This document shows positions 1-39,765 of a stretch of DNA of 64,000 bases, in pieces. A program made the translations under genes and the position numbers. Below the pieces are notes generated by a model. It was not told where the DNA came from. It was given only the letters and a program-made list of their open reading frames with translations, and ran no database searches. Positions within the stretch are counted from its first letter, which is position 1, and every line of letters begins with the position of its first letter. The DNA is from Chloroflexota bacterium (lineage in GTDB: Bacteria; Chloroflexota; UBA5177; JANWHV01), in contig DATBTL010000246.1 in the NCBI GenBank assembly GCA_036559345.1, forward strand, positions 2,657 through 66,656, written 5' to 3'.

Positions 1-18
1 GGCGGCAGGCGGAGACGA

Positions 19-462
19 TTACCGCGGGCGAGTGAGATGACCGAGCACTCCCGTGGGCTCGACCGCGAGGATTGGCGAGTGCGCGAAATCCCTGGTGTTC
101 CGTGTGACAATCAGGGCAAGTCCGGCGGCCTGCGCGCTGGCGATCTGGACATTGTCCTCGAAGTCGCCGCCAGGCAAGGAAAGCGCCGCGGACAGGATGG
201 CCCGATTCACGGCGAGAATGCCGAATGCTTGGAGACATGCCTCCATCGCTTGATGCGCCCGGTCGATACCCACGAGTTTTCGGCAGACATAGTAGATATC
301 GGTCAGAGCGGAGGCAGACAGGTACGCTACCAGGTGCCCGGCATCGTGCGCGTCCCACATCGGTTGCGCGTCGTGTAACCAGGGGTGGCGGGCGAGCAGG
401 AGGTCCAGCACCACGTTCGTGTCGACGAGAACGTGCAGGGTATGGGCGGATGGCTGGCCCAT
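19..462 (-). CDS. vapC: PIN-domain toxin (VapC-like)
   Basis: ORF 19..603 trimmed to ATG at 462 (GGGGA upstream). LHVLVDTNVVLDLL near the N-terminus and LIVTRNTRDF near the C-terminus are classic PIN/VapC motifs. It starts 14 nt after the stop of a small upstream ORF. Confidence 0.8.
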   Translation of the reverse strand: MGQPSAHTLHVLVDTNVVLDLLLARHPWLHDAQPMWDAHDAGHLVAYLSASALTDIYYVCRKLVGIDRAHQAMEACLQAFGILAVNRAILSAALSLPGGDFEDNVQIASAQAAGLALIVTRNTRDFAHSPILAVEPTGVLGHLTRPR

Positions 463-475
463 CGTGTCCCCTGGG

Positions 476-3647: not shown

Positions 3648-4490
3648 TTAGATGTGGTAGATACGCTCGGCGGTCCCGCCCAGCACCGCGGCGATCTCTT
3701 GATCGGTCCGCCCGGCCAGGGCGCGATTCGTCTCGGCCCATACCCGCCCGTAGTCGCCAGCTAGCACGCACACCGGCCAGTCGCTCCCGAACATCAGGCG
3801 ATCAGCGCCAAAGCAATCAAAGGCATGATCGATAGAGGGCTTGAGGGTCGCCGCCGACCAGTTTTCGGGGTCGGCGGCGGTATTGAGACCGGAAATCTTG
3901 GCATGGACGTTCGGGTACCGGGCGGCCTCGGCCAATTGGCTCGCCCACGGCTCCATCACTCCGGCTTTGATCGGCGGCTTGGCCAGATGATCGATAACCA
4001 AGGTGAGCTCGGGGAAGAGCGACGCCAGGGTGGGCACGTGCTTCAGATGGTGCGGGAAGACGGCAACTACCTCGAAAATGAGCTTGCGGTCCGCCACGGT
4101 TTGCAGCCCGCGGAGCACCTGGCCCTGCACCACCCAATCGGGATCCGGCTCGTCATGGATCAAGTGGCGGATGCCGCGAAACTTCGGGTGTTCCCGGTAA
4201 CGGTCGAGCGCTTCCGCCGCCTCAGCTGGTTTCAGGAGCGGTGCCCAGCCGATTACCGCCCCGATCCAGGGGTACTGGTCGGCCTGCCGCAGCATCGCGT
4301 CGGTATCCTCGTAGGAGTTCGCCGCTTGCACGAGGACGGTGGCGTCTATGCCCGCGGCGTGGAGTTGAGGCTCCAACTCAGGTGGCGCATAGGTGCGGAA
4401 TAGTGGTCCAAATTCCGAGGTTAACCATGGGTAGGTACCGGTTTCCAGATTCCAAAAGTGTTGGTGGGTATCGATCTTCCTGGTGGCCAT
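3648..4490 (-). CDS. Amidohydrolase-2 family protein (sugar-acid lactonase-like)
   Basis: N-terminal KIDTHQHFW metal motif and length typical of fucono/rhamnono-lactonase-type amidohydrolases. ATG 4490 (GTG 4493 possible). Same strand as the mutarotase and dehydratase. Confidence 0.8.
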   Translation of the reverse strand: MATRKIDTHQHFWNLETGTYPWLTSEFGPLFRTYAPPELEPQLHAAGIDATVLVQAANSYEDTDAMLRQADQYPWIGAVIGWAPLLKPAEAAEALDRYREHPKFRGIRHLIHDEPDPDWVVQGQVLRGLQTVADRKLIFEVVAVFPHHLKHVPTLASLFPELTLVIDHLAKPPIKAGVMEPWASQLAEAARYPNVHAKISGLNTAADPENWSAATLKPSIDHAFDCFGADRLMFGSDWPVCVLAGDYGRVWAETNRALAGRTDQEIAAVLGGTAERIYHI

Positions 4491-4742: not shown

Positions 4743-5786
4743 ATGGGCGTCACGCTGAAGGAGCTTTCGGACAGCCTGGGGCTCTCCACATCCACGGTGT
4801 CGCGAGCCCTGAGCGGTCGGGAGTTCAAGCGGGCGTCCACCCGTGCCCAGGTGACGAGGATTCTGACGCGGGCGGGGGAGCTTGGCTACGAGCCCAATGG
4901 CCTGGCCCGGAGCCTCAAGACGAAGCGCCGCCGGGTAATCGGACTCATCTTACCGGACATCATGAACGACTACTACGCGGCGGCGGCCACCCAGGTTCAG
5001 GCGACCCTGGCAGCGGCCGGCTATCAGGTCATTCTCTGTGTCACGGGCGACGACCCGGCGATCGAAGCGGCGCAGCGGCGCCTCCTGCGAGAGGAGCGCG
5101 TGGCGGGGATGGTGGTGGTGCCGAGCCCCCAACTGGGACCCGCCCATGGCATGCCAGGCCTCCGGTCCGCCATGCCGGTGATCGAGTTGGTTCGCCACGG
5201 CGTTAATTCGCGGGACGACGCGGTATTGATTGACGATGTGGATGCCGGAAGGCAAGGTACGGAGCACCTGCTCGGTCTCGGGCATCGCCGGATCGCGGTC
5301 CTGACCGGACCAAGTACGTTCAGTACGTCGCGCCTCCGTCTCGATGGCTATCGCCAGGCGCTCGGGCAAGCGGGAGTCTCGATCGATCCGGCGATCATTC
5401 AATCCGGCCCCTATCGGCGGGATGCGGCGCGCGTGGCGACCAGCGCCCTGCTCGGAGGGCGCGACCGGCCGACCGCCCTCATCGCCACCAGCAACGAATT
5501 GGTGATCGGCGCCTTGCAGGCGCTCGCCGCCCAGAACCTCCGCGTACCGGAGGACATCTCGCTGGTCGGTTTCGGCAACGCCGACTGGTTCGCGTTGCTT
5601 CGGCCCGCGCTCACCACGCTCGCGTTGCCCATCCAGGAAATGGCCATGGCGGCGGCGCACCTGTTGTTGAAACGGATCCGTCTGCTCGACGGCCCCAATT
5701 CCGCCTACGACACGGCGCCTATCGTCGCGCGCTACCAGGCGCAACTGATCACGCGCGAGTCAACCCGCCCCCTGGCCGTTTCCTGA
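4743..5786 (+). CDS. LacI family transcriptional regulator
   Basis: ORF 4674..5786 trimmed to ATG 4743 (GGGAGGG RBS). N-terminal HTH VTLKELSDSLGLSTSTVSRAL plus a periplasmic-binding-fold C-terminus. Confidence 0.9.
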   Translation: MGVTLKELSDSLGLSTSTVSRALSGREFKRASTRAQVTRILTRAGELGYEPNGLARSLKTKRRRVIGLILPDIMNDYYAAAATQVQATLAAAGYQVILCVTGDDPAIEAAQRRLLREERVAGMVVVPSPQLGPAHGMPGLRSAMPVIELVRHGVNSRDDAVLIDDVDAGRQGTEHLLGLGHRRIAVLTGPSTFSTSRLRLDGYRQALGQAGVSIDPAIIQSGPYRRDAARVATSALLGGRDRPTALIATSNELVIGALQALAAQNLRVPEDISLVGFGNADWFALLRPALTTLALPIQEMAMAAAHLLLKRIRLLDGPNSAYDTAPIVARYQAQLITRESTRPLAVS

Positions 5787-10912: not shown

Positions 10913-11880
10913 GCGCGCGATGGTCAGGTGAGCGTCTCCTGGGACTCTATCGCGGGATGTATCTGATCCGGCGCTTCGAGGAGCGATGCCTGGAGCTCAG
11001 CCGGAAGGGGCTGATTCCTGGTTCGGTTCACCTCTGCGTCGGCCAGGAGGCCGTGGCCGTGGGGGCGGCGGACGCCCTGCGGCCCGACGACCTGACGGTG
11101 ACCACCTACCGCGGCCATGGCCACGAATTGGCCCGCGGCATCGATCTCAGGGCCGCGATGGCCGAATTGCTGGGCCGGCGGACGGGCCTCTGCAAGGGGA
11201 GGGGAGGCTCGATGCACCTGACCGATATCAGCCATGGCGTCCTGCCGCCCAACTCGATCGTCGGCGGCGGCTTGCCAATTGCCACCGGCGCCGCGCTGGC
11301 CCAGATGCATCAGGGCCGCGATCGCGTCGTCCTCTGTACCTTTGGCGAGGGTACGCTCAATCAGGGCGGCGCGCACGAGGCGCTCAATTTGGCCGCCATC
11401 TGGAATCTACCGGTCATCTTTCTGTGCGAGAACAACCAGTATTCGGAGATGACGCCGGCCTATCAGATGATTAAGGGCGACAGCTTTGCCCCGCGGGTCG
11501 CGGCGTACGGGATGCCTACGCACACGGTGGACGGCATGGATGCACAGGCCGTCGCGGAAGCCGTGGCCCCGGCAGTAGCGCGGGCGCGCGCGGGCGCCGG
11601 ACCGTCGTACGTGGAGGCGGACACCTACCGCTTCCTCGGTCACTATCAGGGCGATCCCGGCACGGGGTATCGTCCGGCCGAGGAAATCGCGCGCTGGCGG
11701 GAACGCGATCCGTTACCCAGGCTGGCCGAGTCGCTAGCCGCCCAGCCTGGATTCGCGCGGCGACTGGAGGCCGAGGAACAGGCGGTCGAGGAGGCGCTGG
11801 GCGCGGCGCAACAAGCGGCGCTTGAGGATCCGTGGCCATCCCGGGACGAGATCGAGGAGGGGCTGTATGCCGCCGGCTAG
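10909..11880 (+). CDS. Thiamine-diphosphate-dependent 2-oxoacid/acetoin dehydrogenase E1 alpha subunit
   Basis: YRGHGHELARG, GRGGSMHL and GGGLPIATGAAL motifs. ATGA overlap with the preceding gene. Confidence 0.9.
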   Translation: MSARWSGERLLGLYRGMYLIRRFEERCLELSRKGLIPGSVHLCVGQEAVAVGAADALRPDDLTVTTYRGHGHELARGIDLRAAMAELLGRRTGLCKGRGGSMHLTDISHGVLPPNSIVGGGLPIATGAALAQMHQGRDRVVLCTFGEGTLNQGGAHEALNLAAIWNLPVIFLCENNQYSEMTPAYQMIKGDSFAPRVAAYGMPTHTVDGMDAQAVAEAVAPAVARARAGAGPSYVEADTYRFLGHYQGDPGTGYRPAEEIARWRERDPLPRLAESLAAQPGFARRLEAEEQAVEEALGAAQQAALEDPWPSRDEIEEGLYAAG

Positions 11881-12880
11881 CGTCTCGAACCCGGTTGATG
11901 CCGCGACCCGTGTGCTAACCTATGCCCAGGCGCTCAATCTGGCGCTGGCGGAGGAATTGGAGCGTGACCCGTCGGTCATCCTGCTGGGCGAGGATATTGG
12001 CGCCTACGGGGGAGTGTTCGGGGTGACGCGCGACCTACAATCGCGTTTCGGCGCCGGACGGGTGCGGGATACGCCAATCTCGGAGACCGGCTTTCTCGGA
12101 TGCGCGGTGGGCGCCGCGATATGCGGACTCCGGCCGGTCGCGGAAATCATGTTCGTCGATTTTACCCTGGTCGCCCTGGATCAAATCGTCAACCAGGCGG
12201 CGAAATTGCCGTTCCTCACCGGAGGGCAAGTGCAAATGCCGCTGGTGTTCCGCACCCAACAGGGCGCGCGCCCCGGCACCGCCGCGCAGCACTCACAGTG
12301 CCTGGAGGCGATATTCGCCCATGTGCCGGGTCTGAGGGTGGTGGCGCCGGCCACGCCGGCGGACGCGCGCGGATTGTTAAAGTCAGCCATTCGCTCCGAT
12401 GATCCGGTCCTCTTTTTGGAGCACAAGGGCCTCTATGCCACCAGTGGTCCGATCCCGATCGAGGAGCAGCTCGTACCGCTTGGCAAGGCTAACGTCGTCC
12501 GCGCGGGCAGCCAGGTCACCGCCCTGACCTATTCCGCGATGCTGCCGGTCGTGCTGGCCGCCGCCGACGCCCTGGCGGCGGAGGGAGTCTCGGTGGAGGT
12601 GATCGACCTGCGAACCCTGGCGCCCCTGGACCAGGAGACCATCGTGGCCTCGGTCAAACAGACCAATCGGGTCGTGGTGATCCACGAGGGTTGGCGGCGC
12701 GGTGGGTATGGGGCCGAGGTCGCCGGCACGATTCAGGATCTTGCCTTCGACTGGCTCGACGCACCCATAGGGCGAGTCGGGGCGCGTGATATTCCCAAAC
12801 CGTTCTCGGCGGCCTTTGATTCGACCTATCTCCCTACGGCGGAAACGGTCGCCGCCGCCTTGCGCGCCACCCTCGACTGA
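11867..12880 (+). CDS. 2-oxoacid/acetoin dehydrogenase E1 beta subunit
   Basis: ORF trimmed to ATG 11867, overlapping the alpha stop. LGEDIGAYGGVFGVT..RVRDTPISE and a transketolase-like C-terminus. Confidence 0.9.
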   Translation: MPPASVSNPVDAATRVLTYAQALNLALAEELERDPSVILLGEDIGAYGGVFGVTRDLQSRFGAGRVRDTPISETGFLGCAVGAAICGLRPVAEIMFVDFTLVALDQIVNQAAKLPFLTGGQVQMPLVFRTQQGARPGTAAQHSQCLEAIFAHVPGLRVVAPATPADARGLLKSAIRSDDPVLFLEHKGLYATSGPIPIEEQLVPLGKANVVRAGSQVTALTYSAMLPVVLAAADALAAEGVSVEVIDLRTLAPLDQETIVASVKQTNRVVVIHEGWRRGGYGAEVAGTIQDLAFDWLDAPIGRVGARDIPKPFSAAFDSTYLPTAETVAAALRATLD

Positions 12881-12893
12881 AAGGCGAGAACAG

Positions 12894-13997
12894 ATGATCG
12901 AAGAGTGGCGGCTGGACGTAACCTTGCCGATGCCCGAACGCCGGGATTATCCGATCGCGATCGTTGGGGCCGGTGGCATCGTCCAGGACGCGCATCTGCC
13001 GGCCTACCGGAATGCCGGTTTCACGGTCGTGGGGATCTACGATATTGACCAGGAGCGGGCCGCGCGCGTGGCGGCACGATTCGACATTCCCACGGTGTAC
13101 GAGTCACTTGACGCCGTACTCGATGGCCCAGCCGCGATCATCGACGTGGCGGTTCCCGCGCGCGAGAATCCGGCCATTGCCGCCCGTGTGGCGCGGGCCG
13201 GGAAAGCGCTGCTCTTGCAGAAGCCGATAGCCGAGGATCTGGCGGCGGCCGAGGAAATCGTGAGGGTGACCGAACAGGCCGGGATTATCGCCGCCGTGAA
13301 CCAACAAGCGCGGTGGATGCCGGCGGCGCTGGCGATGCGCGATCTGATCGGCCGGGGCCTCCTTGGCGAGATCTACCAGGTTTCTTTCTTGATCAACGTG
13401 GAGACGCCGTGGAGCCTCTGGCCGTGGATCATCGCGGGCGAGCGAGTCGAGGTTCTCTACCATTCCATCCACTACCTTGATACGATCCGGGCTCTCCTTG
13501 GCCGCGAGCCCCGGCTGGTATTCGCCGATGGCACGACAATACCCGGCTACCCGACCAGGGCGGAAACGCGCACCAACATCCAGCTCATCTTCGAGGGAAC
13601 CACTCGCGCCACCGTCCTCGACACCCATCATAACTCCGGTGGCCTTGATGACCAGTTCGCGCTGCTCCGGGTGGAAGGCACGGAGGGCGCGGCGGTGGCC
13701 GAGCTTGGCCTGCTCAAGAATTATCCTACCGGGGTGCCCGATTCGTTCCGGTACCATAGCCGGAAGCTCCAGCCAGGCACCTGGATCGCGCCAAAGCTGA
13801 CCGGCACCTGGTTCCCGGATGCCTTCATCGGGACGATGGCCAGCGTGATGCGTGGACTGGAGGGAGCGCCGGGCGCCCCCGAGACCTCCGTGCGCGACAA
13901 CCTTGGCACCCTGCGGGTGGTGCTGGCCGCCTATCAGTCGATGGCGACCGCGCGGGCGGTCGATCCCGCCGCGTTGGCGCGGGAAACATTCTCATGA
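12894..13997 (+). CDS. Gfo/Idh/MocA family oxidoreductase
   Basis: Trimmed to ATG 12894. Rossmann start IAIVGAGGIVQDAHLPAY. Confidence 0.85.
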   Translation: MIEEWRLDVTLPMPERRDYPIAIVGAGGIVQDAHLPAYRNAGFTVVGIYDIDQERAARVAARFDIPTVYESLDAVLDGPAAIIDVAVPARENPAIAARVARAGKALLLQKPIAEDLAAAEEIVRVTEQAGIIAAVNQQARWMPAALAMRDLIGRGLLGEIYQVSFLINVETPWSLWPWIIAGERVEVLYHSIHYLDTIRALLGREPRLVFADGTTIPGYPTRAETRTNIQLIFEGTTRATVLDTHHNSGGLDDQFALLRVEGTEGAAVAELGLLKNYPTGVPDSFRYHSRKLQPGTWIAPKLTGTWFPDAFIGTMASVMRGLEGAPGAPETSVRDNLGTLRVVLAAYQSMATARAVDPAALARETFS

Positions 13998-32179: not shown

Positions 32180-33321
32180 ATGAGCACAGCCCCGCAGGTG
32201 CATTTTGCGACCCTCGATGCAGTCCTGGAACGGATCACCTACGCCAATGAGGAGACCGGCTATACCGTCGCCCGCGTCGCCACCGCACAGGGCGGCAGTG
32301 GCCTGCTTACCGTGGTCGGCTCCCTGCTTGGCGCACAGCCGGGCGAGAGTCTCCGCCTGCGCGGTGTCTGGAAGTCGCATCCACAGTGGTGCTGGGCTTG
32401 GGATCCAAGCGCACGTCGATGACCGGTCGGGCCTGGGAGGAACAGAAGGCGATCAAGGAGGTCATGCTCTTTCTCCAGGGGGTGGGAGTGTCCACCTCGC
32501 TCGTCGTGCGCATCTATAAGACCTACAGGGACGCCAGTATCTCCGTGGCCAAGAACGAGCCCTACAAGCTGGCCGGAGATGTGTGGGCCATCGGCTTCAA
32601 GACCGTCGACACGATTGCGCAGGCGATGGGCATCCCGCACGATAGCCCCCCAACGGGTCAAGGTGGGACTCCAGTTCACGCTTTCGGAGGCCAGCAACGA
32701 AGGTCACTACTATCTCCCGCAAGCCGCCCTGATCGCCACCGCAACGGCGATTCTCACCGTGGAGTCGGTGCTTGTCGAGACCTGCCTGACGGATCTCTCG
32801 GAGGAGGAAGGGGTAATCACGGAGTATCTCCCAGGCCCTGCGGGCGGCGCGACAATCCCGGCCGTCTACCTGGTGCCGTTCTACCGCGCCGAGGTGTCAT
32901 TGGCGCACGGACTCCGCCGTCTGCTGCAGGCATCGACCGAGCGCTTACCGACTTTTCAGCGTGTGGACTGGGAGGCGGCTATGACATGGTTGCAGCGTAC
33001 GACCAGGAGCACGCTGGCGCCCGAACAGGGCGCGGCAGTCCGTCTGGCCCTGACCGAGAAGGTGGCGGTGCTCACTGGCGGCCCGGGCTGTGCGAAGAGC
33101 TTCACCGTGCGCTCCATTGTCACCCTGGCCCGGGCGAAACGGGCCAGGGTCGTCCTCGTCGCGCCGCCAAACGCCTTGCCGAACTCGCGGGCATGGAAGC
33201 CGCGATGCTGCACCGGCTGCTCCAGTTGCGGCCGGGCGGGCCACCGTACTGGTCCACCGCTCCAGTTGCGGCGCCGTGTCACCGGCGAGGCGAGGACGTG
33301 ATCGGGCCCCTGCGGCGGTGA
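32180..33321 (+). pseudogene. RecD2-like SF1 helicase pseudogene (frameshifted, internally deleted, 3'-truncated)
   Basis: The RecD2 N-terminus ERITYANEETGYTVARV..LLTVVGSL..GESLRLRGVWKSHPQW continues in other frames: WEEQKAIKEVMLFLQGVGVS..., then ...LTGGPGCAKSF, then RRAAKRLAELAGMEAAMLHRLLQL. At least three frame changes; helicase motifs beyond motif I/Ia are missing. Confidence 0.75.
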
Positions 33322-33358: not shown

Positions 33359-33374
33359 TGTCGGATTTCCGACA
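33359..33374. promoter_or_regulatory. 16-bp palindrome TGTCGGATTTCCGACA (candidate parS, copy 1)
   Basis: 7-bp perfect arms. It is the exact reverse complement of the copy at 35537. Lies 109 nt upstream of parA. Confidence 0.45.
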
Positions 33375-33431
33375 GCATCTGACCCTTTTTGCACGGGATA
33401 CCGCTCGGGCCAGGGCGAAAATCCATGCATC

Positions 33432-33440
33432 TTGTCCACA
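33432..33440 (+). promoter_or_regulatory. DnaA-box-like 9-mer TTGTCCACA
   Basis: Exact match to the high-GC (actinobacterial-type) DnaA box form. A single copy, so chance occurrence is possible. Confidence 0.25.
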
Positions 33441-33482
33441 AACCCCTGGCAATACTCAACCACCACGCGTATAGTTTCTTCC

Positions 33483-34415
33483 ATGACTGCACAAGAAGGT
33501 AGGGTGTCGCGCGCTGGGACGACCGAACTCCTGAGTACGGCGAATGTCGCCGAGGCCCTGACCATCAGTCGGTCTCGCGTCCTGGCGCTCATACGCGGCC
33601 AACGGCTCCCAGCAATCAAGATAGGCCGTGAATGGCTGATCGAGAAAGCGGACTTGGGTATGGTGACTGAGCGACACGTTGGCAGACCACGGGCCGTGAT
33701 CTCCGAGCCCCCGGCGCCCAGGAAACCGGCGGGGCTGCCTGGGCAGGCGTCCAGTCCGCGCCCTGCCGCCTCTCCAGGGGCTCACCTAAGGCCGCGGACC
33801 ACCTATACGCTCGCGATCGGCGCCCAGAAAGGCGGGGTTGCCAAAACCACTACTACCCTCTATCTTGCCGCGCGCGCGGCGGCGCATTTTGGCAGCACGC
33901 CGGAACACCCAACCGTATGTATCCTGGATCGCGACGAAGCTCAGAATCTCTCGGTCCTTGCGCGCCTCGATCCAGACGTGATCGCGCCCGGTGTACGCTT
34001 ACTGGAGGGAAGCAATGTCCCCGCGCCGGCGCAGGGCTATCGCATGGTCCTCGTCGACACGCCGCCCGGGCTCGCGGCCCTGGATGCGTTGCGGGACGCT
34101 GACCTTCTGGTCGTGCCAGTGCTGGCGGAAAAGCAGGGGGTGGCCAACCTCTCGCAGTATCTGCGCCTGATCGAGGGACTGCGCCGCACGACCAATCCGC
34201 GGTTGCGATTGCTGGCCGTGCTCCCCACTATCGTGGAAAAGCGCAATGCCTTGCACCGCGATATGCTTGAGCTTATCGGACAGATTGCCGCCCAGCACTA
34301 CGCGCCGCTCCATGTGCTTCCCCCTATCCCGCGGGCGAATAGCATCGCGCGTGTCGATTTGCGCGCCACGGGGTATGACGCCGCTGCGAAGGAACTCTTC
34401 GATGCCCTCGGCTAA
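33483..34415 (+). CDS. parA: ParA-family partition ATPase with N-terminal excisionase/MerR-type HTH
   Basis: ORF 33090..34415 trimmed to ATG 33483. HTH LLSTANVAEALTISRSRVLALIRGQRLPAIKIGREWLI, then a Pro-rich linker, then deviant Walker A AQKGGVAKTT and Walker B MVLVDTPP. Confidence 0.9.
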   Translation: MTAQEGRVSRAGTTELLSTANVAEALTISRSRVLALIRGQRLPAIKIGREWLIEKADLGMVTERHVGRPRAVISEPPAPRKPAGLPGQASSPRPAASPGAHLRPRTTYTLAIGAQKGGVAKTTTTLYLAARAAAHFGSTPEHPTVCILDRDEAQNLSVLARLDPDVIAPGVRLLEGSNVPAPAQGYRMVLVDTPPGLAALDALRDADLLVVPVLAEKQGVANLSQYLRLIEGLRRTTNPRLRLLAVLPTIVEKRNALHRDMLELIGQIAAQHYAPLHVLPPIPRANSIARVDLRATGYDAAAKELFDALG

Positions 34416-35535
34416 GAGGCGGCGGGAAATCCAGTTCGCCGCTGATCTCCTGGGCGACGATCAGGGTGGCACACCATACGACAACGACGTCAAGGCAGCG
34501 GAGGGGTCGTTTCAGCGCATGGCCGACGCCTACCTGATTCCCATTCAGCGCCTCTCACCCAACCCCAACAACCCGCGACGCCAGATTACTCATCTTGAGG
34601 AACTGGCGGCGTCCATCGCCGAGACCGGACATGTGCTGCAAAACCTGGTAGTGCGCCGGCATCCCGACAACGCCGGATTCTACATCGTCACCGCCGGCAG
34701 CCGCCGCCTCGGGGCCGTGCAATTGTTGAATGATGGCGGTGTGCCCGGAGTGAGCGTCCATATCGACGCCCTACCCTGCGTGATCGAGGAAAGGTCGGCG
34801 GATCAAACCTATCTCGACGCATTGACCGAGAACGCCGCCCGGGAGGATCTTACCCGGGCCGAGCTCATGGATGCCGTCCTCTATATCAGCCGCGCCTACC
34901 GCTTCTCCGCCCGTGAAATCGCCAGGCGTATCGGGCGCCATCACTCAGACATCTCCGAATTGCTCGGCGTGGCGCGCGACGAGGAAGTGGCGACCCTTGT
35001 ACGAAGTGAGGTCATCAACACCAGCGTCGGCGCCGCCATTGCAAAGCAACCGCCGCCAGCGCGGCAGGAGATCCTGGCCGCCGTTCGGCAGCGGCATATA
35101 CGCACGGCGGCCGACGTAGCTCGCCTGGCAGCCAGGGTGACCCACAACGGCCTGCCGCCACGATCACCCGACTTCCCCGAATGGGATGGCGTCCCGGTCG
35201 CCCATCCCGGCCAGGATGCGGACGAGCCGGCCACGGTCTTTGTAACGCCCGTTGACACGAGCGCCAGGAACGCCGGCGTCCCCAACCAGAATCAACCGCA
35301 CGAAATCGAGCACTCCGCGCAATATCATGTAGGTCGTGGCGCCGCCGAGGCGCGCGCGGCGGCCCGGGACGGACTGCGCCGGGTCGCGCGCTTCCCGGAC
35401 CCTGAATTCCAGGCAGTACTCGACCTCCTTGCCTACGGCAGGGCATATCATCTGCAATGGCAGGTAGCCTTGCAGGAACTGCTGCAAGAGCGCGGCATGG
35501 TTGAACGAGAGCAACGTGCTGATGGGCCAAGCTGA
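34402..35535 (+). CDS. parB: ParB-family partition protein
   Basis: Trimmed to ATG 34402, overlapping the parA stop. IPIQRLSPNPNNPRRQ and VTAGSRRLGA (ParB box II-like GxxR), followed by HTH FSAREIARRIGRHHSDISELL. Confidence 0.9.
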   Translation: MPSAKRRREIQFAADLLGDDQGGTPYDNDVKAAEGSFQRMADAYLIPIQRLSPNPNNPRRQITHLEELAASIAETGHVLQNLVVRRHPDNAGFYIVTAGSRRLGAVQLLNDGGVPGVSVHIDALPCVIEERSADQTYLDALTENAAREDLTRAELMDAVLYISRAYRFSAREIARRIGRHHSDISELLGVARDEEVATLVRSEVINTSVGAAIAKQPPPARQEILAAVRQRHIRTAADVARLAARVTHNGLPPRSPDFPEWDGVPVAHPGQDADEPATVFVTPVDTSARNAGVPNQNQPHEIEHSAQYHVGRGAAEARAAARDGLRRVARFPDPEFQAVLDLLAYGRAYHLQWQVALQELLQERGMVEREQRADGPS

Positions 35536-35536
35536 G

Positions 35537-35552
35537 TGTCGGAAATCCGACA
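35537..35552. promoter_or_regulatory. 16-bp palindrome TGTCGGAAATCCGACA (candidate parS, copy 2)
   Basis: Begins 2 nt after the parB stop codon. Extends to 18 bp as GTGTCGGAAATCCGACAC. Confidence 0.45.
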
Positions 35553-35738
35553 CCACCCTCATGTTTCTACAGGGGGTGCGCCATGGTATCGACACCGACA
35601 ACCGAGGTGAAGGTCGGACGGCGTGGTAGAAAGCATGAATTGCCAGCACGGGGCACCAGGCGCATGCGCCGATCCATCGGAATCAGAACCCCTTTGAGAC
35701 TAGCAAGGTGGATTGGCTGAAGCGGGAAGGCTGCCGGG

Positions 35739-37556
35739 ATGGCTGAGGAAGATAACGGCCCACACACTGCCCATGAGGCGCGGATGGCCCTCGATTATGC
35801 TCGCGATCTCCTGAGAACGGCGGCAGCGGGGACTACCAAGGGCGGGTTGGGCGCCTTTCGCTCTGAGTTGGATCGCGCGCAAGAACAGCTCGCCACGGAT
35901 CCGGATGGCGCCCGTGCTCACGTCGATGCCGTGCTGGAGGCACTGGAGCAATTGGGGCTGCCGGGCAGTCATTCCGTGGACATGCTCGACGTGTTCTTCG
36001 CTCAATGGCGATCGTACGTCACCTTACGGGAGCAGCGGGGCGCACTTGCCGGCGATCCATGGCACAATGCGATGCTGTTCATCTGGACGGAGGACGGCGA
36101 GCCCCCACGCGAGAATTCCTTGCATATTCTCACCTGCCGCCTGCCTGGCGGGGACGAGCCGCCGTTTGTCCTCCCAACCAAGTTGCAAAAGAAGACCAGC
36201 CAGGAGCTCCTGCCCTGGATGACCTGGCGAGCGGATCAGCAGCCCGAGCTACAAGCCCTACAGCGGCCAGTCACGCGGTATGTGGCGCTCTACGTACGGG
36301 GTGAGCAACTCTGCTGGGACGCCTCGCCCGACTACCCCCTGTGCGACGAAGCGCCCGATGTGCGGACCCTGATGCTGCCGCCACGTCGGTGGGGCGAGCT
36401 TGCCGCGCTGCCGCCGGGAGAAGCGCCACGACCGACGCTCCCCGCACCGACACATCCATCCGCGCGTCCCGCCATGCCGGCCCCCTCAATCCTGGATCAA
36501 GATAATGTCGCCATCGGTTCGAGTACGCTCCTACCCCACACCTTCCGCGCCATGCGTATGCCTGGCCGATGGATGCGCCCCGGCAACGGCAATCCGCCGT
36601 ATTACGAGGAACTGCATGAGGGGGTAGCAGAGGCTGATCGGGTCAAAGTGCTGCTCCACCCGTCCGATGGCCGGAGCCCCTTGACTCCCGAGCAGGAAGC
36701 GGCGGCCTATGAGGCCGTGCTCGGTCTGGACGACGATAAGGTGCGCGCCTTCGCCATCGCGCTTGGCTCCTGGTTTGCCGGCACCGGCGGCGGTGACGCG
36801 CACATGCCCAAGGTCACGGTGACAGCCAACGCACTGCTGGAATTCCAGGGGGTCAAGCGCAACAAGGGCGCGTATAGACCAGCACAAAAGGAGAAGGTGG
36901 CCAATGATGTCTGGGCGCTGAATTCCATCTTCATTCGCGGGCCACAGGTCGTGTACGATGCGCGCGGTCGCCGCAAGATCGTAAAGGTGCGCTCCCGCCT
37001 GCTTGAGGTGGCGCAGGAGGACGAAACCAACCTACTGGGGGAGGACACTCCCTATGCCTTCCGCATCGCGCCGGGTGAGTGGATCAAACCACTGATTGAG
37101 GAAGGTACCCGCTACGTGGCTGTGTTGCTCTCTCCCGTCCTGCGCTACAACCCCAGACAGGGCGTGGAGTTGATCGCCATGCGCATTGGTCTTCATCTGG
37201 CCCTGCATTGGCGGTTCCGAGCGGCACAGGGCAATTTCGACCAGCCATGGAATATGACAACCCTGTTGGAGAGCACCGGGATTGAGATTCCGACGCACCG
37301 AGAACAGCGCAGGCGATTGATCGAGAACTTCGAGCGGGCCATGGACCGCCTGCGGGAGGACGGCGTGCTGGCAAGTTGGGAATACGTGCGCCTGGTGATG
37401 GAGGTGAATCCCACGGCCGTGTTCGCCGAGTGGATCACCCGCACGGTGCGCGTGATGCCGCCCCGGGCGGTGACCGATCAGTACGCGGGCATTGCCAGGC
37501 GGCATCGCTTAGAGGTGGCGGCGAGTAAGCGCCGTGCGCCGCGACAGACGGTTTAG
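35739..37556 (+). CDS. Hypothetical 605-aa protein (possible replication-associated protein)
   Basis: Long uninterrupted ORF with a GGGAAGG RBS. No family recognised. A Pro-rich linker (PPGEAPRPTLPAPTHPSARPAMPAP) separates two halves. It ends 10 nt before the first iteron. Confidence 0.75.
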   Translation: MAEEDNGPHTAHEARMALDYARDLLRTAAAGTTKGGLGAFRSELDRAQEQLATDPDGARAHVDAVLEALEQLGLPGSHSVDMLDVFFAQWRSYVTLREQRGALAGDPWHNAMLFIWTEDGEPPRENSLHILTCRLPGGDEPPFVLPTKLQKKTSQELLPWMTWRADQQPELQALQRPVTRYVALYVRGEQLCWDASPDYPLCDEAPDVRTLMLPPRRWGELAALPPGEAPRPTLPAPTHPSARPAMPAPSILDQDNVAIGSSTLLPHTFRAMRMPGRWMRPGNGNPPYYEELHEGVAEADRVKVLLHPSDGRSPLTPEQEAAAYEAVLGLDDDKVRAFAIALGSWFAGTGGGDAHMPKVTVTANALLEFQGVKRNKGAYRPAQKEKVANDVWALNSIFIRGPQVVYDARGRRKIVKVRSRLLEVAQEDETNLLGEDTPYAFRIAPGEWIKPLIEEGTRYVAVLLSPVLRYNPRQGVELIAMRIGLHLALHWRFRAAQGNFDQPWNMTTLLESTGIEIPTHREQRRRLIENFERAMDRLREDGVLASWEYVRLVMEVNPTAVFAEWITRTVRVMPPRAVTDQYAGIARRHRLEVAASKRRAPRQTV

Positions 37557-37566
37557 ACAGTGGTAT

Positions 37567-38024
37567 CCCTCATCGGATGTGACGCCACCGGGTCAGGGTT
37601 GTTGCAACAGACGTTTTGATTGGATGACCGTGCGCACATCCCCTCATCGGGTGTGACGCCGCCTTGTTCGTTGGCGAGAATATCCTCTTTACCCCTCATT
37701 GGGTGTGACGCATTGCTACCGCCCGCCAACAGTGTCGCGCGAACGAACGGTATGCGAGCCCATTCGGCTGGGCATCGAGAGCCGTAAAGGCCCGGTTGCC
37801 CGGGCACGGCGGCATCTGATCGCTCAGAGCACCGTCCGATTGTCCACCTGTCCTTCCGACAAGGGGAAACGCTCGGCGCCCCTCATCAGGTGTGACGCGG
37901 TCGCATGGATCTGACAAAGGAGCGGTGACACCGTGCTTTTCACCCTCATCTGATGTGACGCCCTCACGGGCCGTGGCGGAATCCCTCATGGACTGTGGCG
38001 GAATCCCTCACGAGGTGTGACGCT
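37567..38024 (+). repeat. Iteron-like direct repeat array (8 copies of a ~20-bp motif)
   Basis: Copies: CCCTCATCGGATGTGACGCC (37567), CCCTCATCGGGTGTGACGCC (37641), CCCTCATTGGGTGTGACGCA (37693), CCCTCATCAGGTGTGACGCG (37880), CCCTCATCTGATGTGACGCC (37943), degenerate CCCTCACGGGCCGTGGCGGA (37961), CCCTCATGGACTGTGGCGGA (37983), CCCTCACGAGGTGTGACGCT (38005). All lie on the same strand. Confidence 0.75.
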
Positions 38025-38139: not shown

Positions 38140-39765
38140 GTGCGGGTATGTTCCCGCCGCGTGATAGGTGAAGAAAGGGACGTCAACGTGCAGGCTCAGG
38201 CGAGAATACGCGACCGAAGTCCGCGATGCGAGCGCGAGCGTGCCGCCAGACCAACACCCGACCAATCGCAAGACTACCCCAGCGGGCCAGACGCCAGCCA
38301 GCAATCGCGCGCCTCCGAGGGGTGCGCACAAGGGCAAGTCGCCCTGACCTGGTGCCCACCAGGGATAGGGTCCGCTAGGACCGGCGGTACCACCGCGCCA
38401 GAGGAGGAGGATCGCGACCGCCCTACCATTGTCGTCCAGGACACCGCTCATCGATCCGGGTTTACGCTTGTACCGAACCAGCTGCTCTTCGCCAGGGGCT
38501 TGACGCACGGCGCCAAGCTCACCTACGCCCTCTTACTGGGCTACGCATGGCAGGAGGGCAGTTGCTTCCCCGGGCAAGAGCGCCTAAGTGAGGATCTCGG
38601 TGTAGAGCGCAAGGCGGTCATCCGCTATCTCAAGGAATTGAAGGACAGCGGCATGGTGCGGGTAATCCGGCGTGGCCTCGGGCAAACAAATCTCTATATC
38701 CTGCCGAAGCTGGCAGATGTCGCGTTGTTGGCCAAGGAGCCAGTTTCATCGCCTGATGTCCCCCAAATCGGATATCAGCAAGTCCCGAGTCTGGGCCAAC
38801 CGGTTGTCTTGGGTAGCGGACACTACGTACACCCAGCGGACAAGACACAGAAAAGAAGTCATTCGATTCGACTCGACTCCTGTCAAGCGGAATCAATGCC
38901 TGTGGCGAAGGCGCCAATTACCCTGCTTGCGTCCCAACGGATGCGGTTACGCTCAGCTATCCGCGGTGAAGAGCCATGCCGCGACAAGCCGGATTCACCG
39001 CCCCAGGATAGCCAGTCTCCAGCTGGACTCACTGGGCACATCGCCCCAGGAGACTCCAGTCCCGCCGGCGCATGCGACGCCTTGGTGCGACCGCAAGCGC
39101 CAAATCGGTCATTCCGGAAATCCTCTTCCCGTGCCACGCGGCGGAATGTTGCGCCAGACGTGCCGCCGCATGAAGCCGAGAAAGCGGTGGCGGCGATCCT
39201 GGAACCGCTCCGCCGAACGTTCCGTGATGCCGCATCGAATCGGGCGACCATCACGCGGGCAGTACACCTTCTTGATTGCTCTGGGCTTGAATCAGCAGTG
39301 TTTATCCGGTTCTTGCACGAAGCGGCGGCACGCACGCGCGGCAGTCTACAGGTTGGCGTCATAACGAGTAACCCGATGGCGTATTTCTTCGCCTGCCTGG
39401 TCCAGCTTCTCGACGATACGGTCCATCCGGACGCTCCTCCTGAGCCCGGAAGGCCACGGAGGGCGGGACCGCCAGGAGGAGCGCCCAGCCATGACGCCGT
39501 GGCCTGTAGCCCCGACGATCATCCTCTTTGGGCGCGGGTACGGGAGGAACTGGCCGCCACCATCGCGGAAAGAAGCTACCGGGAGATGGTCGCGCCTACC
39601 CATGTGATCGCCGATGACGGGTTGGTGCTGCGCGTGGCGACGGGCTCCGCCTTTCAGCGTGACTGGCTCACCAATCGGCTTGGCAAGAGAATTACCGACA
39701 TCCTTTCCGACCTCGGCCGTGAGAACCCGCGGGTTGAATTTGAGGTGCCACAAACTGTTACCTAA
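38140..39765 (+). CDS. Putative replication initiator: wHTH (HTH_36-like) domain plus DnaA-N-terminal-like C-terminus
   Basis: FTLVPNQLLFARGLTHGAKLTYALLLGYAWQEGSCFPGQERLSEDLGVERKAVIRYLKELKDSGMVRV fits the plasmid/phage replication-protein HTH pattern. C-terminal LWARVREELAATIAERSYREMVAPTHVIADDGLVLRVATGSAFQRDWLTNRLGKRITDIL resembles DnaA domain I. Start is GTG 38140 or GTG 38188 (AAGAAAGGGA RBS). Confidence 0.7.
   Translation: MRVCSRRVIGEERDVNVQAQARIRDRSPRCERERAARPTPDQSQDYPSGPDASQQSRASEGCAQGQVALTWCPPGIGSARTGGTTAPEEEDRDRPTIVVQDTAHRSGFTLVPNQLLFARGLTHGAKLTYALLLGYAWQEGSCFPGQERLSEDLGVERKAVIRYLKELKDSGMVRVIRRGLGQTNLYILPKLADVALLAKEPVSSPDVPQIGYQQVPSLGQPVVLGSGHYVHPADKTQKRSHSIRLDSCQAESMPVAKAPITLLASQRMRLRSAIRGEEPCRDKPDSPPQDSQSPAGLTGHIAPGDSSPAGACDALVRPQAPNRSFRKSSSRATRRNVAPDVPPHEAEKAVAAILEPLRRTFRDAASNRATITRAVHLLDCSGLESAVFIRFLHEAAARTRGSLQVGVITSNPMAYFFACLVQLLDDTVHPDAPPEPGRPRRAGPPGGAPSHDAVACSPDDHPLWARVREELAATIAERSYREMVAPTHVIADDGLVLRVATGSAFQRDWLTNRLGKRITDILSDLGRENPRVEFEVPQTVT

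Follow-up and report, generated by a model that had tools for sequence, protein, structure and literature searches.

Candidate non-canonical parS sites bracket a parA-parB operon of a Chloroflexota replicon and share half-sites with parAB loci of Leptospiraceae

The DNA analyzed here is a 64,000-nt stretch of the forward strand from a Chloroflexota bacterium (GTDB lineage Bacteria; Chloroflexota; UBA5177; JANWHV01; assembly GCA_036559345.1, contig DATBTL010000246.1, positions 2,657 to 66,656), hereafter the window. It contains a parA-parB operon on the + strand, in which parA (33483..34415) and parB (34402..35535; 377 aa) overlap by 14 nt. A preliminary description of the window had drawn attention to two 16-bp palindromes flanking this operon and had proposed them as a replicon-specific parS centromere. 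Both 16-mers were found where they had been placed, i.e., TGTCGGATTTCCGACA at 33359..33374 (site 1) and its reverse complement, TGTCGGAAATCCGACA, at 35537..35552 (site 2). Their distances to the genes required small corrections: parA starts at 33483 rather than 33484, so that site 1 lies 108 nt (not 109) before its ATG, and the parB stop codon ends at 35535, leaving one base (not two) between it and site 2. Nor are the sites perfect palindromes. Each is a near-palindrome in which 7-bp arms, TGTCGGA and TCCGACA, surround a centre of TT or AA, and since this centre is not self-complementary, the copies that bracket parA-parB are inverted relative to each other.

The two proteins have the make-up of a type I ParABS system. 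ParA carries an N-terminal excisionase-type helix-turn-helix (HTH) domain (HTH_17, residues 16-58; window 33528-33656) fused to a ParA/MinD-type ATPase (Pfam AAA_31 and CbiA; alignment A6), and its Walker A sequence, QKGGVAKTT, is of the deviant type found in type I ParAs. The NCBIfam model ParA_partition matches the protein, but under its cut-off. ParB contains a ParB_N domain (PF02195; E = 4e-10), scores 66.9 bits against TIGR00180 (cut-off, 58.45), and aligns to the Caulobacter ParB-parS structure 6T1F (E = 2.9e-12) as well as to 4UMK. Its N-terminal domain includes the motifs GSRRLGA and ENAAREDL, and the residues of the cytidine triphosphate (CTP)-site motifs GxRRxxA and ENxxR (G99, R101, R102, A105, E143, N144, and R147) are invariant in alignment A3. 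The type I combination of ParB_N, with its GxxRxxA and ENxxR motifs, and an HTH domain is completed by a recognition helix, HHSDISELLGV, in a region where the Pfam HTH_ParB match is weak and below cut-off (17.5 vs. 22.6 bits). Short inverted-repeat sites near the operon that are kept in relatives, and a site sequence that co-varies with the DNA-reading surface of ParB, are further type I features that were found here.

To judge whether the pair of sites could have arisen by chance, we compared the window with simulated sequence. The 7-mer half-sites occurred in the window at chance frequency (9 seen vs. 8.8 expected), no clustering of half-sites near the par region was found there, and palindromy alone was not unusual (nine 7+2+7 palindromes vs. 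7.25 expected). A duplicated 7+2+7 palindrome, as seen in the window, appeared in 0 of 100 first-order Markov simulations, and two motif matches appeared in 0 of 200 shuffles for each 3.5-4-kb related contig. On the strength of these simulations and shuffles, a chance origin of the pair was rejected. The window contains no third copy, none having been noticed in the preliminary description either, and this holds even with up to 3 mismatches allowed. As the arms can be extended to 21 nt with 90% complementarity (repeat I16), we also considered that the sites might be the ends of a mobile cassette; this was dropped, given that the enclosed DNA encodes no transposase or recombinase and that relatives do not keep the arm extension. 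Directly after site 2, at 35553-35578, a second hairpin (CACCCTC...GGGGGTG) is predicted.

Both sites are conserved in position and sequence among close relatives. A search for ParB homologues returned only three close clusters (100, 82, and 80% identity), a metagenome scan added one further locus (L125), and a scan of viral contigs for ParB relatives found none. The ParB of L001 is identical to that of the window and those of L002, L003, L004, and L125 are 80-82% identical; all five of these loci have the two sites where the window has them. Site 2 shows 0-2 changes, which fall on the outermost base and, in L003, also on one base of the centre. In the upstream alignment (A1; 69% mean identity), site 1 and a block, CTTTTTGCACGGG (33385..33397), which follows it after 10 nt, stand out as invariant. 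Since homology to the window starts ~25 nt before site 1 and the genes farther upstream vary between contigs, site 1 marks the left edge of the conserved module. A promoter-like element, CTGGCA-N18-TATAGT (33446..33475, + strand), begins 71 nt after site 1 and is not overlapped by it. Its TATAGT ends 7 nt before the parA ATG, a distance that suggests a leaderless parA transcript, and the GTATAGTT-N7-ATG arrangement is kept in L002, L004, L132, and L137. Among the relatives, a 58-nt indel lies between site 1/CTTTTTGCACGGG and the conserved promoter block; therefore, exact spacing between site and promoter is not required. The par operon of L002 is preceded by a second, divergently oriented parB-like gene (1-468, minus strand), with 45% identity over 110 aa.

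More distant par operons were recovered by searching with ParA. Three of these (L132-L134) encode ParA and ParB proteins that are 69 and 44% identical, respectively, to those of the window, and they show the same bracket layout with another palindrome. On the upstream side, 112 nt separate their copy, TGGAGGATATCCTACA, from the parA ATG, and their downstream copy, TGGAGGATATCCTCCA, a perfect 8+8 palindrome without a loop, lies 83 nt past the parB stop. Relative to the window site, only mirror positions 3,4 and 13,14 are altered (TC to GA), and the ParB recognition helix changes from HHSDISELLGVAR (SDISELLGVAR) to HHTDMAELLRLAS (TDMAELLRLAS). This comparison supports a natural specificity switch between the two lineages, with palindrome and ParB helix apparently changing together. 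Other distant relatives differ in organization. In L136, HTH_17 is a separate 70-aa open reading frame (ORF; 2346-2558) just upstream of a short ParA; thus, this domain occurs both fused and split. L130 has a complete second parA-parB pair (11579-13445) adjoining its operon. The GC-rich parB of L135 holds a perfect 17-nt AT-rich inverted repeat (GGTGTTTAAACTTAAAC, 4328-4344; GTTTAAGTTTAAACACC, 4421-4437) that may be the centromere of that lineage.

The same half-sites were also found beside par genes in another phylum. When one genome per species (185,579 species genomes) was scanned with the pattern TGTCGGAWWTCCGACA (the sites are also written as tGTCGGANNTCCGACa), at least 120 stretches matched. 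Among the matches listed, most were single and scattered over unrelated taxa, as chance predicts, and six loci (L022, L027, L065, L067, L078, and L102) lay within 300 bp of a par gene; by rough estimate, fewer than 1 of 120 random positions would be expected to do so. Four of the six (L022, L027, L067, and L078) come from Leptospira, Turneriella, and a Spirochaetota metagenome-assembled genome (MAG), L027 being Leptospira noguchii (358-kb contig) and L067 Turneriella. Each has two TGTCGGA-NN-TCCGACA copies just upstream of parA-parB, which is followed by a gene for an HTH_36 Rep protein. A profile search listed 117 Leptospiraceae ParBs, many of them on contigs of 270-490 kb, which we take to be about the size of Leptospira chromosome II. 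From these, we picked four further loci via ParB as diverse members (31-45% GC): L126 (L. kobayashii, AP025029.1, 274 kb), L127, L128, and L129 (L. broomii). Each contained one or two (T)GTCGGA-NN-TCCGAC(A) copies within the AT-rich stretch that precedes parA; the rest of the 12.8 kb had none. In total, eight Leptospiraceae/spirochaete loci have these half-sites directly upstream of parA-parB.

The two remaining loci near par genes are organized differently. L065 (MAG, 2.56-Mb contig) has two parB paralogues ~5 kb apart, each with a palindrome (TGTCGGAATTCCGACA or TGTCGGTATACCGACA; 338-353 and 5463-5478) inside its coding sequence, just after the HTH, where it encodes C-R-[NY]-[ST]-D. The first parS of Bacillus subtilis likewise sits within a coding sequence, that of spo0J. 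L102 (Psychromonas sp. SP041, 288-kb contig, 1-2100) has ~21 copies of GTCGG-N4-CCGAC, mostly GTCGGAAC[GA]CCGAC, ~76 bp apart and immediately upstream of parA and a 361-aa parB-like gene; we take them to be a centromere array of tandem repeats that share the 5-bp arms of the motif. Elsewhere in the Chloroflexota, an Aggregatilineales MAG (L033, 1-250) has three TGTCGGAATTCCGACACC copies 141 nt apart, one of them cut at the chunk edge, adjoining an unannotated 225-aa ORF.

The feature that follows the motif across these lineages is the ParB recognition helix. Every ParB found beside the motif has the form [STN]-E-[LIVM]-[LI]-[GSA], and this Glu signature is common to the window family, L065, and almost all of the 117 Leptospiraceae ParBs listed. 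In its place, ParBs of the canonical type show [SAT]-N-x-[LM]-R-L-L, along with GH[AG]RALL, a motif that is lacking in the motif-associated group. In the Caulobacter ParB-parS co-crystal, the DNA contacts are made by Q162, G170, K171, S172, N178, and R204, residues conserved between ParB and Noc, and specificity is set by R173 and G201 (PMC7383237). On the 6T1F alignment, the window ParB carries H in place of both S172 and R173, E in place of N178, and A in place of R204; with these replacements, most of the residues for reading canonical parS are gone, and the DNA-reading surface of this ParB has been re-made. In addition, ParB is the sole DNA-binding protein common to the window family, the Leptospiraceae loci, and L065, and mainly for this reason we prefer it as the reader of the sites over the HTH_17 of ParA and over two proteins encoded downstream, orf605 and a Rep-like protein. 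No canonical parS was found in the window, where the best match had 3 mismatches, i.e., chance level. Taken together, the conserved position and sequence of the sites, their co-variation with the ParB helix, and the presence of the same half-sites beside parAB of another phylum favor the centromere reading put forward in the preliminary description, and we consider it quite probable that the sites are parS loading sites for a divergent, CTP-type ParB on a plasmid-type secondary replicon. The further suggestion that they are replicon-specific stands in part: it fits within one cell, but the motif is not unique to this replicon and is apparently used by a whole ParB subgroup.

The surroundings of the operon resemble the maintenance module of a large plasmid or chromid. 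Downstream of parB, orf605 (35739..37556, + strand; 605 aa) starts 186 nt after site 2 and has no Pfam or NCBIfam match; it directly follows parB in all close relatives as well, with 67-75% identity in L002-L004, and the gene at the equivalent position in L130 matches ROS_MUCR. Between orf605 and the Rep-like gene lie seven iteron-like direct repeats of 19-24 nt with irregular spacing (37562..38023; core CCCTCATCGGRTGTGACGC; families D1 and D2), which are probably a replication origin. The Rep-like ORF itself (38140..39765, + strand) encodes HTH_36 and then, at the C-terminus, DnaA_N; in L132-L134, a small minus-strand ORF with DnaA_N alone follows parB (L132 2893-3360). Upstream, a RecD2/YrrC-type helicase gene (OB_YrrC, AAA_19; 32180-33321) is broken over at least three frames and truncated before site 1, and is probably a pseudogene. 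The remaining genes of the window encode ABC transporters, a LacI-family regulator, lyase- and enolase-family enzymes, and others. Megablast of the 7-kb par/rep region against PLSDB gave no match, and tblastn against the same database returned ParB relatives that were all <35% identical and, for Rep, matches to generic HTH proteins only. We therefore regard the replicon as one without a close cultured relative.

Several observations weigh against a ParB-bound parS. Binding of the sites by ParB, clamp loading, segregation, and autoregulation are all inferred, the loading and segregation steps from homology with characterized ParB CTPases, and the copy count covers 64 kb of the replicon only. 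The more distant relatives L130/131 and L135/136 have no comparable palindrome pair (the contig of L137 is too short upstream to show a site). Since the window and L132 lineages also differ to some degree in the HTH of ParA (alignment A6), the sister-lineage switch alone cannot separate ParA from ParB as the reader. In the Leptospiraceae, a divergent HTH_8 regulator gene, for which the window has no counterpart, shares the intergenic region with the half-sites, and its product is a possible binder there. Finally, the site sequence by itself is not diagnostic: the 16-mer is also found in conserved contexts of unrelated kinds, e.g., in Mesorhizobium, in Micromonosporaceae, and in a Leptospira repeat. 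In Mesorhizobium (L050, L077, L098, L100, and L101), where a half-site-like gtcggatttgcgatcc adjoins it, and in Micromonosporaceae (L062 and L113), the exact 16-mer stands in homologous non-par contexts and is presumably a site for another regulator. In Leptospira, TGTCGGAATTCCGACA is part of a repeated element (L018, L019, L024, L099, and L111; L. borgpetersenii, L. alstonii, and L. ainlahdjerensis) that has conserved flanks (ataaatc...atcctc.gtgaaa) with cagggtggggc nearby, is unrelated to par genes, and, in one L. alstonii genome, is present on three separate contigs.

The main rival explanation is that the palindrome is an operator for the HTH_17 fused to ParA, which would autoregulate the operon in a type Ia-like manner while ParB binds elsewhere. 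Such an arrangement has precedent, as P1 ParA and F SopA repress their own operons via an N-terminal DNA-binding domain. The window ParA has an HTH in the corresponding place, site 1 lies upstream of the parA promoter, and the HTH differs between the two lineages whose palindromes differ. We nevertheless consider an operator unlikely, since the same half-sites precede parA in the eight spirochaete loci and the one Leptospira ParA that was scanned consists of ATPase domains only, without an HTH. The type Ia ParA operator is an inverted repeat overlapping the par promoter, whereas site 1 is off the promoter-like element at a distance that varies by 58 nt among relatives, and the second copy stands after parB, where an operator has no obvious use. 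Moreover, no other repeated element fit to serve as parS was found in or near the operon. The ParA HTH may, speculatively, bind a different conserved, promoter-proximal block (33430-33482).

Two other explanations were weighed against parS. A protein other than ParA or ParB, such as orf605, Rep, or a host regulator, might bind the palindrome, e.g., for replication control or handcuffing: orf605 is close to site 2 and conserved with the module, the origin-like iterons are only 2 kb away, and in other taxa the motif stands in contexts where other proteins presumably bind it. We regard this as quite improbable, as tblastn of orf605 against the motif-bearing spirochaete loci gave no match and Rep already has repeats of its own, the iterons, of unrelated sequence. 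A Rep family common with Leptospira was rejected because the proteins have nothing but HTH_36 in common and do not align; of the genes that were examined, the ParB helix signature alone follows the motif from lineage to lineage. Alternatively, the palindromes could act as RNA hairpins, i.e., as terminators or 3'-end stabilizers for the upstream gene and for parAB. Each site can indeed fold into a GC-rich stem of 6-7 bp, site 2 starts one base past the parB stop, and the mirror-image changes in the L132 lineage would keep the stem. An intrinsic terminator, however, was rejected, as it consists of a GC-rich hairpin with a T-run directly behind it and neither site was called by the terminator scan; the nearest T5 comes 11 nt past site 1, and site 2 is followed by none. 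Site 1 precedes the promoter-like element, and the content farther upstream differs between relatives, with a helicase remnant in the window and opposite-strand ORFs in L125. The Leptospiraceae sites lie in a divergent promoter region rather than at the 3' end of a gene, the L065 site is inside a coding sequence, and the L132 version, an 8+8 palindrome, has no loop. Considering these observations, we give an RNA role next to no weight.

Replicon-specific, 16-bp palindromic parS sites have been described for the Bsr families of Burkholderia cenocepacia (c2, c3, pBC, and related plasmids; PMC5450999) and for Vibrio cholerae ParAB2/parS2 (PMC6090056). The window system resembles these in combining a type I ParA with an HTH ParB, in having a 16-bp palindrome near the operon that differs from the chromosomal consensus, and in the occurrence of related ParBs with related yet distinct palindromes. 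As in most Bsr sites, position 1/16 tolerates change (T/A or C/G in the relatives here); however, a T-rich 5' end and a central CG characterize the Bsr sites (PMC5450999), whereas the arm here (TGTCGGA) contains the GC-rich GTCGGA and the centre is a free A/T (TT/AA). Unlike in these systems, ParA has an extra HTH_17, and ParB is below 35% identity to the plasmid ParBs in PLSDB. The canonical ParB-parS system and its paralogue, Noc with the Noc-binding site (NBS; PMC7383237), share the ParB_N (GxxRxxA, ENxxR) plus HTH architecture, and canonical parS, TGTTNCACGTGAAACA, is likewise a 16-bp sequence of two-fold symmetry with outer TGT...ACA triplets. Yet the window site agrees with this consensus at only 8/16 positions, in line with the mismatch reported in the preliminary description, so that it does not belong to canonical parS; the DNA-contact residues are replaced and GH[AG]RALL is absent from the window ParB. 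The Leptospiraceae ParA-ParB-Rep(HTH_36) loci have identical half-sites (1-2 copies by parA), the same Glu helix signature, and an HTH_36 Rep gene downstream. Their ParBs, however, are 21-31% identical to that of the window, their sites are all upstream of parA with none past parB, and they differ further in a ParA without an HTH, the absence of orf605, and the divergent HTH_8 gene. With the type Ia systems (P1 parABS, F sopABC), the window shares an N-terminal DNA-binding extension of ParA and a centromere position downstream of parB. In P1 and F, operator and centromere differ, and the centromere is complex (ParB boxes plus an integration host factor site, or 43-bp repeats), whereas the window has one simple palindrome in both positions, an excisionase-type HTH on ParA, and a chromosomal, CTP-type ParB. 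None of seven site variants was found in the open-access literature searched; likewise, no published parS for a Leptospira secondary replicon was found, and the Leptospira replicon papers checked define none.

If the sites are parS, a ParB dimer would read the two 7-bp arms via its helix-turn-helix, bind CTP, close as a clamp, and slide to neighboring DNA. A loading site on each side would then produce a ParB-coated complex over the 2.2-kb parAB and toward the iteron origin 2 kb downstream, and the ParA ATPase would segregate this partition complex. ParB at the upstream site would probably also dampen the parAB promoter, although this is speculative. More tentatively, and with somewhat more doubt than confidence, we propose that tGTCGG-N4-CCGACa and a ParB with Glu for the conserved Asn in its recognition helix constitute a third ParB/Noc specificity class beside parS and NBS. 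The class would be old, being common to Leptospiraceae chromosome II-type replicons and uncultured high-GC replicons, and the sister lineage with TGGAGGATATCCTCCA and AELLR would represent a switch within it.

It is well established in general that secondary replicons have parS sites of their own; the parts worth following are the cross-phylum motif and the natural switch. The two sister palindromes and two ParB helices amount to a small natural experiment on the re-programming of ParB specificity, complementing earlier work on ParB and Noc (PMC7383237). ParB/parS pairs serve as orthogonal DNA-labeling tools (PMC11109969; PMC11798528), and pairs without cross-reaction to canonical parS would be useful as such labels; a third class, if real, would be a source of new ones. 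For the organisms themselves, the sites are a candidate centromere for a replicon family known from metagenomes only and, by extension, for the parAB of chromosome II-sized replicons across the Leptospiraceae; should the third class prove true, Leptospira chromosome II would have this motif as its centromere.

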